Source: a virus
Taxonomy: Duplodnaviria; Heunggongvirae; Uroviricota; Caudoviricetes
Length of the DNA: 64,000 bases
Virus record (IMG/VR): IMGVR_UViG_648028025_000010
Direction: 5' to 3' (one strand)
Shown here piece after piece: positions 41,117 to 43,376 of the stretch; the stretch's first letter is position 1, and each line of letters starts with the position of its first letter. The position numbers and the translations under genes are program-made. The notes beneath the pieces are model-generated. The model saw nothing but the letters and a program-made list of their open reading frames with translations. It was not told the origin of the DNA and made no database searches.

Positions 41117-41130
41117 TTGAGTTTTCTCAA
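41117..41130. promoter_or_regulatory. Operator-like palindrome in the dicC-dicA intergenic region
   Basis: TTGAGTTTTCTCAA (inverted repeat). The same 12-13-bp motif recurs at 41653-41665 and inverted at 41690-41700. Confidence 0.5.
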
Positions 41131-41180
41131 TGCTAATCACTCAAGGAATCTCAAGTCAAGGGTTATTAAGATATCTAAAT

Positions 41181-41588
41181 ATGAACGAGAAAACTTTAGG
41201 TCAACGCATTAGAGAAAGACGTAAGCAGGTAGGCTTAAGTCAAAACGGTTTAAGCAAAGCTGCTGGCGTATCTGGCTCATCAATTTCATTATGGGAAAGT
41301 GACCATACAGCCCCGCGCGGGCAAAATTTGCATCGCCTCGCCGAGGTATTGCAATGTTCACCAACTTGGATACTGTTTGGCGACGAGGACAAAACACCAG
41401 CTCCCCCTGTTTCACTCGATAGTGCCTTAGACTTATCGGAAGATGAGTTAGAGATGCTGCGTTTGTATCGCGCACTTCCTAAATCAGAGCAACAAGCACA
41501 ACTCAGCGAACTCCGCGCCCGCGTTGAGAATTTTAATCGCCTGTTCACCGAGCTATTAGAGGCTCGCAAACGCAACAAGCATCAATAA
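41181..41588 (+). CDS. dicA: DicA-like HTH_XRE repressor
   Basis: From MNEKTLGQRIRERRKQVGLSQNGLSKAAGVSGSSISLWE... with C-terminal LAEVLQCSPTWILFGDEDK, matching my recollection of DicA. Confidence 0.8.
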   Translation: MNEKTLGQRIRERRKQVGLSQNGLSKAAGVSGSSISLWESDHTAPRGQNLHRLAEVLQCSPTWILFGDEDKTPAPPVSLDSALDLSEDELEMLRLYRALPKSEQQAQLSELRARVENFNRLFTELLEARKRNKHQ

Positions 41589-41652
41589 TCATCCCTTCAC
41601 AAAATTTTAAAGCCTTACATTTCAATGTATTGGCTTTATCTTGCGCCAACAC

Positions 41653-41700
41653 TTGAGTTTTCTCATCAAAAAACCTTGACGAAAAATAATGAGAAAACTA
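41653..41700. promoter_or_regulatory. Operator-like inverted repeat pair downstream of dicA (candidate dicB-operon operator)
   Basis: TTGAGTTTTCTCA at 41653-41665 and its near-reverse-complement TGAGAAAACTA at 41690-41700. Confidence 0.45.
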
Positions 41701-41780
41701 AATTACCTCCATCAAGACACCGCACGGTGTTCTCAGCAAACAGTTCCGCTACCCCGGCGTTAAGGGGAAATGAGGTCAGC

Positions 41781-41936
41781 ATGGATACTATCGATCTTGG
41801 CAACAGCGAATCTCTGGTATGTGGCGTGTTCCCCAACCAGGACGGCACGTTCACCGCGATGACGTATACCAAAAGCAAAACGTTTAAAACCGAAAATGGT
41901 GCCCGTCGCTGGCTGGAAAGAAACTCAGGTGAGTGA
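41781..41936 (+). CDS. ydfA: YdfA-like small protein (51 aa)
   Basis: ATG with GAGGT RBS. MDTIDLGNSESLVCGVFPNQDGTFTAMTYTKSKTFKTENGARRWLERNSGE. Confidence 0.6.
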   Translation: MDTIDLGNSESLVCGVFPNQDGTFTAMTYTKSKTFKTENGARRWLERNSGE

Positions 41937-41937
41937 T

Positions 41938-42513
41938 ATGGATTTCAACACAATCATGGAAAAGGCTTACGAAGAATACTTCGAAGGCCTTGCCGAAGGC
42001 GAAGAAGCTCTCAGCTTCAGTGAGTTTAAACAGGCACTCAGAATAAGAATGTGCTCTCACAATGACGCGGAGCACAAATATGAGAAGCAAAATCAGACCG
42101 CAGAAAATTTTGTTCTGGAACCCGGAGAAACGCTTTTCAAAATTCCCGTTACGTGCCCCATTTGCGGTTTTACATCAGAAGAACTTGACGACTCCTGTAA
42201 CAATCAGGAAACAACCAAGTATGTCGAAGATGATACCGAGTGCGCACGAAGAACGATTATATCCACGAGTCCAAACTCCAGGACCAATAAATCTCACTAT
42301 GAGAGGGTGATTAATCCACTCCCCCAAACCAATAAAAAAGATGCCGGAGGACAAAAAACCCAATGGAACAACGGGATATCTGTCAAAAAAAGACGTTCCA
42401 TTAAAGACAAACAACGCAGCGCCAACAACTGTAAGCGCTTTATACCAGTAATCAATTTTCATGTTCTTAAGCGGATTTATTGGTGGTTGCGACATTGCTT
42501 AATGAATCCTTAA
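41938..42513 (+). CDS. Hypothetical Cys-rich protein (191 aa); N-terminus resembles Qin YdfB
   Basis: MDFNTIMEKAYEEYFEGLAEGEEALSFSEFKQALRIRMCSHNDAEH...CPICGF. Likely the intact form of a gene that is fragmented in Qin (ydfB/ydfC). Confidence 0.45.
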   Translation: MDFNTIMEKAYEEYFEGLAEGEEALSFSEFKQALRIRMCSHNDAEHKYEKQNQTAENFVLEPGETLFKIPVTCPICGFTSEELDDSCNNQETTKYVEDDTECARRTIISTSPNSRTNKSHYERVINPLPQTNKKDAGGQKTQWNNGISVKKRRSIKDKQRSANNCKRFIPVINFHVLKRIYWWLRHCLMNP

Positions 42514-42772
42514 AACTGTGGTGATTTTAAGGATACCACCTCGCCTGACGTGGTTAAAAGCAGGCACACAACACGAAAGCGCACGGCGAAGTTCGTCTCA
42601 CTGTACGGTGTCGTTAAATTTAATTCGACCGTGCGCTTCCGGTTGTGGCAACCCGCAAAATGGCGCGGCGGTAAGTATGGCGGGGTTATTCCTTCCCCGT
42701 TGAGGACACCGGGTTGTCAGGTTGACCATACGCTTAAGTGACAACCCCGCTGCAACGCCCTCTGTTATCAAT

Positions 42773-42830
42773 TTTCTGGTGACGTTTGGCGGTATCAGTT
42801 TTACTCCGTGACTGCTCTGCCGCCCTTTTT
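42773..42830 (+). ncRNA. dicF: DicF small regulatory RNA
   Basis: tttctggtgacgtttggcggtatcagttttactccgtgactgctctgccgccc followed by ttttt matches the DicF sequence as I recall it, including the terminator hairpin (ggcgg...ccgcc). Confidence 0.85.
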
Positions 42831-42999
42831 AAAGTGAATTTTGTGATGCGGTGAATACGGCTAAGCGCACGCGGAACAGTTAAAACCAAAAACAGTGTTA
42901 TGGGTGGATTCTCTGTATCCGACGTTAATTGTTAACTGGTTAACGTCACCTGGAGGCACCAGGCACTGCATCACAAAATTCATTGTTGAGGACGCGATA

Positions 43000-43188
43000 A
43001 TGAAAACGTTATTACCAAACGTTAATACGTCTGAAGGTTGTTTTGAAATTGGTGTCACTATCAGTAACCCTGTATTTACTGAAGATGCCATTAACAAGAG
43101 AAAACAAGAACGGGAGCTATTAAATAAAATATGCATTGTTTCAATGCTGGCTCGTTTACGTCTGATGCCAAAAGGATGTGCACAATGA
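43000..43188 (+). CDS. dicB: Cell-division inhibitor DicB (62 aa)
   Basis: MKTLLPNVNTSEGCFEIGVTISNPVFTEDAINKRKQERELLNKICIVSMLARLRLMPKGCAQ. Confidence 0.9.
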   Translation: MKTLLPNVNTSEGCFEIGVTISNPVFTEDAINKRKQERELLNKICIVSMLARLRLMPKGCAQ

Positions 43189-43376
43189 ATTCAGCATTTG
43201 CGCTTGTTCTGACAGTTTTTCTTGTTTCCGGAGTGCCAGTTGATATTGCAGTCAGTGTTCACAGGACAATGCAGGAGTGTATGACTGCAGCAACCGAACA
43301 GAAAATTCCCGGTAACTGTTACCCGGTCGATAAAGTTATTCACCAGGATAATATCGAAATCCCGGCAGGTCTTTAA
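43185..43376 (+). CDS. ydfD: YdfD (63 aa) small membrane protein
   Basis: MNSAFALVLTVFLVSGVPVDIAVSVHRTMQECMTAATEQKIPGNCYPVDKVIHQDNIEIPAGL. Start overlaps the dicB stop. Confidence 0.8.
   Translation: MNSAFALVLTVFLVSGVPVDIAVSVHRTMQECMTAATEQKIPGNCYPVDKVIHQDNIEIPAGL

Follow-up and report, generated by a model that had tools for sequence, protein, structure and literature searches.

The 64,000-nucleotide window analyzed here, a single stretch from IMG/VR virus record IMGVR_UViG_648028025_000010 (Caudoviricetes), carries at positions 41117-43376 a variant of the dicBF operon, which serves as a model for the control of host division, metabolism and phage resistance by cryptic prophages and on which work has so far addressed the layout found in Escherichia coli K-12. 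In the reading that we favor, and which we hold to be probable, the locus combines a Qin-type immunity switch with a dicBF operon in which the 3′ end of ydfB and all of ydfC have been replaced by a two-strand module. This module consists of a minus-strand gene for a small membrane protein and of a plus-strand open reading frame (ORF), termed ORF-X, that runs antisense through it. The dicBF operon, its regulators and their wide mosaic distribution in E. coli prophages have already been described (PMC5069750, PMC10448788), the window is annotated as such, and the heteroimmune switch is an expected variant. In relation to the libraries and papers searched, two features are new: a conserved, mostly unannotated membrane gene situated antisense in the dicBF operon in ~15% of E. 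coli genomes and, on comparative evidence, an overlapping operon frame that appears to be kept open by selection.

Alignment with the K-12 Qin prophage bore out the operon identity proposed in an earlier note on this DNA, and it resolved the region into a mosaic of five segments:

40885-41004: the 3′ part of dicC, 95.8% identity to K-12
41005-41715: the 5′ part of dicC, the intergenic region, the whole of dicA and the dicB promoter, 51% identity to K-12
41716-42037: the operon leader, ydfA and the first 33 codons of ydfB, 96.6% identity to K-12
42038 to ~42590: the replacement segment, unrelated to K-12 (36% identical columns, 128 gap columns)
42611-43460: the DicF precursor onward, 98.7% identity to K-12

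The 3′ end of K-12 ydfB, ydfC and ~150 nucleotides (nt) are gone from the window, and ~550 bp of foreign DNA stand in their place; in comparison with K-12, the promoter-proximal gene set has kept ydfA, has a ydfB truncated after codon 34, and lacks ydfC. The genes and elements of the operon are as follows:

41781-41936, plus strand: ydfA, 51 residues, DUF1391 (Pfam 8.8e-28; 49/51 identical to K-12)
41938-42513, plus strand: a chimeric 191-residue ORF with seven Cys, in which ydfB codons 1-34 (41938-42039) are fused in frame at 42037/42038 to ORF-X
42127-42177, plus strand: a short ORF-X segment, GE..IPxxCPxCGF, just outside the membrane gene and under purifying selection
42175-42495, minus strand: the gene for a 106-residue, three-helix membrane protein, convergent with the dicB promoter (dicBp) and unannotated in most genomes
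42520-42566, no strand assigned: a conserved, non-coding element of ~45 nt, CCAC..CCTGA.GTGG..CAGGC, conserved with variable loops in all module lineages
42611-42772, plus strand: the leader of the DicF precursor, within the 42611-43460 block
42773-42825, plus strand: the DicF small RNA with its terminator hairpin and T-run (53/53 identical to K-12 dicF)
43000-43188, plus strand: dicB, 62 residues (Pfam DicB 1.9e-40; 62/62 identical to K-12)
43185-43376, plus strand: ydfD, 63 residues, DUF1482, lysis protein (Pfam 2.2e-25; 61/63 identical to K-12)
43470-45941, plus strand: an intact 823-residue exonuclease of the YdfE type, the next operon gene after ydfD; in K-12 the equivalent gene, ydfE, is interrupted by IS2 and a pseudogene

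The earlier note had described the region as an intact, DicA-controlled host-control and superinfection cassette composed of ydfA, an intact ydfB/C-like gene, DicF, DicB and YdfD. Its assignments of ydfA, of DicF (matched at 42774-42825 by Rfam family RF00039, whose gathering score of 48 is well exceeded by the 76.7 bits obtained) and of full-length DicB and YdfD were all confirmed. The description as intact holds for DicF, DicB and YdfD, but neither for the ydfB/C-like gene nor for the surrounding prophage. For K-12, processing of the DicF precursor by RNases E and III is known (PMC10448788), and roles of DicB and DicF in division inhibition and phage exclusion are established (PMC5069750, PMC10448788). 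Because the sequences are identical here, the K-12 functions, namely the block of the FtsZ ring and the block of ManYZ-dependent phage entry, should be transferable to the prophage in the window.

A Cys-rich ORF of 191 residues exists at 41938-42513 as the earlier note had it, but its interpretation there as the intact form of a gene split into ydfB and ydfC in K-12 was ruled out by BLASTP against K-12 YdfB and YdfC and by the DNA alignment. Residues 1-34 correspond to YdfB, a protein of 42 residues (33/34 identical, E=2e-21), whereas the remainder has no similarity to K-12 YdfC (BLASTP E=17), and ydfC is absent from the window. On the identical record of strain RM8426, the Prokaryotic Genome Annotation Pipeline (PGAP), which also annotates ydfA, dicB and ydfD there, marks 41938-42039 as 'ydfB, incomplete, missing C-terminus' and leaves 42040-42999 (960 bp) without annotation. 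Judged by these comparisons, the 191-residue ORF is a truncated ydfB fused to an unrelated frame running antisense through the membrane-protein gene. Its only family match, end to end, is to the orphan family phrog_35040, which contains only this same locus; a sub-threshold match to a rubredoxin knuckle was also recorded. We also weighed, and dropped, the idea of a frameshift or readthrough signal where ORF-X ends, no canonical slippery heptamer being present there. At other loci (L125, which is IMG/VR 2529292829_000010, and L127/L128; proteins P0066, P0067 and P0070) the ORF-X frame stays open across the 45-nt element and joins ydfC, a run-on that is probably incidental since ydfC keeps its own Shine-Dalgarno sequence and ATG.

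The minus-strand ORF of 106 residues, by comparison, is a real gene. Its product, which is hydrophobic and in our reading an inner-membrane protein, has 60 database relatives, down to 34% identity, of which the full-length ones (100-111 residues, 34-58% identity) come from Yersinia enterocolitica, Herminiimonas, Reinekea and many metagenomes. Reference genomes contribute 28 loci at 30-45% identity, distributed over diverse Proteobacteria and other phyla, and a profile search recovered 487 cluster representatives at E <=0.001. The motifs WYKA and G.GEW.NHP are invariant, as are, very nearly (at least 90%), D15 and Y16 in the DY ahead of them. Between prophage lineages the ratio of nonsynonymous to synonymous differences per site (pN/pS) is 0.18-0.42. 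AlphaFold returned a confident model (predicted local distance difference test, pLDDT, 88.3; predicted template modeling score, pTM, 0.74) with helices at residues 17-32, 42-62 and 85-105 and a beta hairpin at 65-79, for which Foldseek found no hit at E <=0.001 in PDB or among the BFVD viral predicted structures, all template modeling (TM) scores being below 0.4. In prophages the gene always lies directly after the repressor and against the early-left operon, and it does so in five immunity contexts, with repressors of the DicA type, of the RacR type with kilR downstream, and of the S24-CI type; the neighbors of homologues outside prophages (Herminiimonas, Reinekea) are uninformative. PGAP calls the gene in few genomes, for example in NZ_CP039403 (WP_127712993.1), and not in RM8426. 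From its position we would guess at a moron-type function, possibly phage exclusion. A decayed copy with several in-frame stops and deletions, one of them inside the 45-nt element, is found in Shigella flexneri CP182557.

ORF-X reads through the membrane gene in its codon-aligned antisense frame, where stops arise only from the membrane-gene codons TTA, CTA and TCA. The enterobacterial prophage copies, including lineages at 58% and 51% protein identity, all have zero stops in this frame, whereas homologues elsewhere with a G+C fraction of <=0.51 have 2-17 antisense stops, except for one Pantoea and one Nitrosomonadales copy. When synonymous codons were resampled with the codon usage of neighboring prophage genes, the probability of zero stops was 0.007-0.015 per lineage; resampling based on third-position usage in the gene itself gave 0.006-0.02, which rules out codon bias alone as the explanation for the open frame. 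The A-ending Leu and Ser codons (TTA, CTA, TCA) number 0 out of 14-17 in each of three lineages, compared with A at 12-31% of the other third positions, and because these lineages share few Leu/Ser sites, the stop-free draws are largely independent. An IMG/VR search for further diverged lineages yielded zero relatives of the Yersinia protein, and other queries yielded mostly near-identical E. coli copies.

Just outside the overlap, the 17-codon segment encoding IPxxCPxCGF has a pN/pS of 0.14-0.69 in the ORF-X frame as against ~1 or more in the other two frames. Among five sequences its variable sites fall 8/7/15 (of 17 each) over the codon positions, and the changes are mostly synonymous third-position ones (ATT/ATC/ATA, CCC/CCA/CCG/CCT, TGC/TGT, GGT/GGA, TTT/TTC). 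In every context, moreover, the start codon is so placed that ORF-X either opens the operon or is translated by coupling; in prophages of the Rac-like and S24-CI kinds no other gene separates ORF-X from the early-left promoter, and the leader in front of it is the one that precedes ydfA in the window. These patterns suggest a selected antisense overlap in which the plus-strand frame is kept open beyond chance, although the 110-residue ORF-X tail itself is probably not the selected thing.

The second component of the locus, the immunity switch, lies largely in the mosaic segment of 51% identity to K-12, and its parts are as follows:

40876-41103, minus strand: a dicC-like, Cro-type regulator of 75 residues (Pfam P22_Cro 3.2e-16; PGAP 'Cro/CI family transcriptional regulator')
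41116-41131: predicted operator 1, a perfect palindrome, ATTGAGTTTTCTCAAT, overlapping the -10/+1 region of the dicC-like promoter; positional equivalent of K-12 Oc
41130-41159, minus strand: predicted dicCp-like (pR-like) sigma-70 promoter, TTGACT-18-TAGCAT, 9/12 in a consensus scan, between operators 1 and 2
41165-41180: predicted operator 2, a degenerate palindrome, ATTAAGATATCTAAAT, abutting the dicA ATG, with two mismatches to the palindrome consensus
41181-41588, plus strand: a DicA-type repressor of 135 residues (Pfam HTH_3 2.1e-15), without an S24 peptidase domain
41652-41667: predicted operator 3, CTTGAGTTTTCTCATC, just 5′ of the dicBp -35, with the exact 13-mer core; K-12 has a site at the homologous position
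41676-41704, plus strand: predicted dicBp-like (pL-like) promoter, TTGACG-17-TAAATT, from a consensus scan; K-12 has the same architecture, TTGACC-17-TAATCT
41688-41703: predicted operator 4, AATGAGAAAACTAAAT, an inverted copy overlapping the dicBp spacer and -10

The repressor gene sits immediately 5′ of the dicBF operon and is divergent from the Cro-type dicC. Its product is 57% identical to K-12 DicA, with the changes concentrated in the helix-turn-helix (HTH) and recognition-helix region and a conserved C-terminal half; the dicC-like protein is 70% identical to K-12 DicC, the last 40 residues being nearly identical and the N-terminal HTH part diverged. The earlier note had proposed DicA control of the operon through two operators marked by a repeated motif. 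A DicA-type repressor does lie directly upstream and the repeats are real, exactly at the positions expected of operators, but the repressor is not K-12 DicA, its recognition helix having changed, and the candidate sites are four, not two. The motif belongs to a longer palindrome of 16 bp, ATTGAG-N4-CTCAAT, that occurs at 41116, 41165, 41652 and 41688. Two exact copies of its 13-mer TTGAGTTTTCTCA lie at 41117 and at 41653, a third copy, inverted and with a single mismatch, occupies 41690-41702, and no further copy with at most one mismatch occurs elsewhere in the window. Operator 1 is 12 nt from the dicC-like start codon, in the same place relative to dicC as K-12 Oc (TTGTTAGTCATAACTAACAA), which is experimentally defined: DicA binds it, repressing dicC and activating dicA (PMC3441716). 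At homologous places K-12 (locus L002) has GTTAG-N6-CTAAC sites at 2868, 2918, 3379 and 3414, with spacings of 50 and 35 bp as compared with 49 and 36 bp in the window; K-12 lacks the palindrome of the window, and the window lacks the K-12 motif. Each promoter has two clear sites, and one further, weak candidate lies over the start of dicA (41184-41195). We infer that the repressor binds the four palindromes, given that HTH region and site sequence co-vary between the window and K-12. By sequence, the switch is a heteroimmune version of the known DicA switch, with the same wiring and a predicted different specificity class, because the repressor is only 57% identical to K-12 DicA and has a different recognition helix.

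Several alternative explanations bear on these assignments. That the 191-residue ORF represents an ancestral intact gene, later split into ydfB and ydfC in K-12, would account for the YdfB identity of its first 34 residues, and ORF-X and ydfC are indeed neighbors in one frame in P0066, P0067, P0070, L125 and L127 (ORFs of 245-280 residues). However, the ORF in the window has no YdfC similarity, ydfC is missing altogether, and the ORF-X part has no K-12 counterpart. K-12 ydfB and ydfC are both ordinary annotated coding sequences, the latter with its own start, and the YdfB family profile, phrog_2061, is only 54 positions long. Loci in which ORF-X runs into ydfC have no ydfB and retain the ydfC Shine-Dalgarno sequence and ATG, and PGAP flags the ydfB of the window as truncated. 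Taken with these observations, an ancestral gene is scarcely credible. Just as improbable is a reading in which the 191-residue plus-strand ORF is real and the 106-residue minus-strand ORF an artefact, as the annotation of phage HannyBb and PHROGs imply. Gene callers usually take the longer plus-strand ORF, cluster P0061 comprises 1798 sequences, HannyBb annotates the ORF and the match to phrog_35040 extends end to end, yet that family holds only this same locus. The minus-strand protein, for its part, has full-length distant homologues whose antisense frame is full of stops, as well as invariant motifs, a low pN/pS and a confident three-helix model. The view that the TGAGTTTTCTCA motifs are not repressor operators, but repeats that arose by chance or accompany promoters, or else targets of a different protein (DicC alone, for example), finds some basis in the fact that K-12 DicA bound Oc but neither of two other predicted intergenic operators (PMC3441716). 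We nevertheless consider it very unlikely: all three copies of the 13-mer, two exact and one with a single mismatch, fall within 600 bp, the rest of the 64 kb has none, the sites are palindromic, they match the K-12 sites one for one in position and spacing, and their sequence co-varies with the repressor HTH region.

A stronger competitor, although still one to which we assign clearly less than an even chance, holds that the plus-strand ORF is a mere shadow of the membrane gene, open by chance or codon bias, translated to no purpose and fused to ydfB by accidental recombination. Inside the overlap, purifying selection is seen only in the membrane frame, and the differences observed within lineages are all synonymous for the membrane protein and nonsynonymous for ORF-X; an ORF-X without a confident fold, natural ORF-X knock-outs and two unrelated homologues likewise free of antisense stops also fit this view. 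Opposed to it are the absence of A-ending Leu/Ser codons from each of three lineages (P ~0.01 per lineage), the 17 codons outside the overlap with their coding periodicity and a pN/pS below 1 in the ORF-X frame only, and the invariable placement of the ORF-X start codon at a first or translationally coupled operon position. The reading that we favor, of a Qin-type switch and a dicBF operon carrying a selected two-strand module, must also be set against a number of findings that weigh on the other side. The stop-depletion statistic rests on three well-diverged lineages, and the Pantoea and Nitrosomonadales homologues, unrelated and of moderate G+C content, have zero antisense stops as well. Within the overlap the ORF-X amino acids are unconstrained (pN/pS 0.7-1.6), and AlphaFold gave no confident model of the ORF-X protein (pLDDT 42.6), which on a shallow alignment is weak evidence. 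ORF-X is broken and the membrane gene intact in L004, L011, L022, L094 and L130/131; because these naturally broken copies keep an intact membrane gene, ORF-X is dispensable at least sometimes. The membrane protein has no match in Pfam, NCBIfam or PHROGs and 0 hits in PADLOC, its role being guessed from position, and a consensus promoter scan gave no hit for a membrane-gene promoter. At the switch, only two strong sites were found per promoter where the K-12 literature speaks of three (PMC10448788), and in K-12 only Oc has been demonstrated to bind DicA (PMC3441716).

If the locus is nonetheless a working switch with a two-strand module, its operation might be envisaged as follows. In a lysogen, the DicA-type repressor bound to the four palindromes would shut both dicCp and dicBp and, by analogy with K-12, would sustain its own synthesis, and the membrane gene would most likely be expressed from its own promoter while dicBp is off. 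Once repression is lifted, be it by an antirepressor, by heat or urea or through a spontaneous switch, the routes known from K-12 (PMC10448788), the promoter at 41676-41704 would transcribe ydfA, the truncated ydfB-ORF-X fusion, the DicF precursor, dicB, ydfD and the exonuclease gene, with the fusion presumably translated by coupling to ydfA. Firing of dicBp would cause the operon transcript to collide and pair with that of the membrane gene, such that convergent transcription would shut the membrane gene down. The selected trait could then be the passage of ribosomes across ORF-X, which would keep Rho from terminating the transcript, or antisense RNA from pairing with it, and so allow DicF and DicB to be made, and/or it could be the short N-terminal CPxCGF peptide; DicF and DicB would subsequently act as in K-12 (PMC5069750, PMC10448788). 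In its boldest form, which we put forward tentatively and regard as doubtful, 42038-42590 would be a selected two-strand toggle between lysogeny and lytic growth, with the membrane protein made in the repressed state, and with the membrane gene silenced and ORF-X translation required for DicF and DicB (protection from Rho or RNase III) in the derepressed state. Such a toggle would explain an open frame with freely varying amino acids because ribosome passage would be required. Were it true, the membrane protein may prove to be a new phage-exclusion or envelope factor from a family of ~500 clusters with no known fold. The head-on membrane gene could alter the timing and amount of DicF and DicB, and it adds to the operon an uncharacterised membrane protein, proposed to be expressed in lysogens, in the place where phage-exclusion genes are classically found.

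Lambda rexAB and sieB and P22 sieA/sieB are examples of morons and exclusion genes that prophages carry beside the repressor. As with these, the small membrane gene of the window lies beside the immunity region, is oriented for possible expression in the lysogen, and forms part of a cassette that moves among prophages with different repressors. Unlike them, it is embedded antisense inside the early-left operon, has homologues also outside prophages, and encodes a protein without sequence, profile or fold similarity to known exclusion or defence proteins.

The overlap invites comparison with the few antisense overlapping pairs known from E. coli, namely pop/ompA (PMC7103648), nog1/citC (PMC4683798), laoB (PMC5810103) and three more (PMC9927249). 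Common to all is a long ORF fully antisense to an established gene, with only one of the two annotated and with stop depletion as a sign of selection. Here, however, it is the 'mother' gene that annotation misses, and ORF-X is without amino-acid constraint inside the overlap and has it only outside. ORF-X also differs in being part of a repressor-controlled phage operon, the two frames probably being used in alternative states, and in that the case for it is comparative only. For testing selection on an overlapping frame, the stop-free antisense frame makes a clean case, in that single synonymous changes can separate the two strands experimentally.

With respect to the K-12 Qin dicBF locus, the window shares the prophage position, the leader, identical DicF and DicB, near-identical YdfA and YdfD, the promoter/operator layout and the rem gene nearby (PMC5069750, PMC10448788). 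It differs in a repressor of 57% and a DicC of 70% identity, in operators of another sequence class, in a truncated ydfB, the loss of ydfC and 550 bp of foreign DNA, and in having an intact exonuclease together with head, tail and lysis genes. Like the lambda and P22 immunity systems (CI/C2, Cro, OL/OR), the switch has a divergent repressor/cro pair and palindromes over pR-like and pL-like promoters, and in all of these heteroimmunity arises when the specificity part is exchanged in mosaic fashion. In contrast to lambda and P22, its repressor is short and lacks a RecA-cleavable S24 domain, induction would be by antirepressor or spontaneous switching as in K-12 Qin, and the clear operator sites are 2+2, not 3+3.

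Of 5426 complete E. coli genomes, 795 (~15%, or about one in seven) carry the two-strand module, as compared with 2956 that have the K-12 ydfC-type segment. Carriers include O26 Shiga toxin-producing E. coli (STEC) and ATCC 25922, ~200 IMG/VR contigs, and the isolated temperate phages HannyBb, Tritos and mEp460_ev081. Public annotation of the 42040-42999 locus is inconsistent: that of HannyBb shows only plus-strand ORFs, including spurious-looking ones over the DicF precursor, and PHROGs has a family for the plus-strand ORF (phrog_35040) and none for the membrane protein.

Between the membrane gene and the DicF precursor lies the conserved 45-nt element, whose arms, AGGATACCAC-loop-CCTGA-N-GTGG-loop-CAGGCA, are interleaved and invariant, with loops of varying length. 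The element also occurs alone, ~20 nt 5′ of ydfC, in many lambdoid phages, among them PPompW, mEp460, Evi, Cronobacter phiES15 and Klebsiella and Salmonella phages, and a search of Rfam with E values up to 5 matched no family. Possible roles are those of an RNA resembling a pseudoknot, of a linker for recombination between modules, or of an extended -10 promoter on the minus strand. A conserved extended -10-like sequence, TGGTATCCT, 40 nt 5′ of the membrane-gene ATG, is a candidate promoter for that gene; a search for its terminator found none that was clear, only a weak hairpin at 41998-41979. RNAalifold predicted two hairpins in the membrane-gene 5′ region, with only one compensatory pair, too little to assert an RNA structure. 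A 10-bp inverted repeat, ATCCTTAAAA / TTTTAAGGAT, at 42506-42534 would in the minus-strand mRNA pair the membrane-gene Shine-Dalgarno sequence with the region after the putative -10; other lineages keep it as a hairpin, though a single pair is clearly compensatory.

The 64-kb window holds a near-complete lambdoid prophage at the Qin position of an O26 STEC. The 2.7 kb around the dicBF region are 100% identical to many E. coli O26:H11 chromosomes, such as that of RM8426, in whose record the prophage lies at the Qin position with rem, hokD, relBE, ydfV and flxA on one flank of the dicBF region and the exonuclease gene, xis and int on the other. The rest of the prophage still has genes for tail, head, lysis and a Q-type antiterminator. 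Its xis gene (46014-49000) is interrupted by the IS66-family element ISCro1 at ~46137-48752, and its integrase gene (49007-51554) by IS600 at ~50068-51224. The nearly complete prophage is probably unable to excise, and because these insertion sequences split xis and int, the intact dicBF operon resides inside a locked-in prophage. The K-12 DicA antirepressor gene is also present:

35068-35319, minus strand: rem (82/82 aligned residues identical to K-12 Rem)

In K-12, Rem is an antirepressor that relieves DicA repression (PMC10448788). Either Rem reads the C-terminal half of DicA, which is conserved, or Rem and repressor are a mismatched pair in this prophage; an unchanged Rem beside a diverged DicA-type repressor provides a ready test case for antirepressor recognition.

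Elsewhere in the window, an ISEsa1 transposase fragment lies in the replication region of the prophage (37861-38931). A second, adjacent prophage has at its edge nleC, which encodes a type III effector metalloprotease (52345-53331, minus strand), and its tail genes fill the remainder of the window. Rfam matches comprise an IS009 RNA at 3777-3975 (minus strand) and two cspA-type thermoregulator leaders, at 28845-29230 and 31740-32132 (both minus strand), 5′ of the prophage cold-shock genes cspI and cspB.

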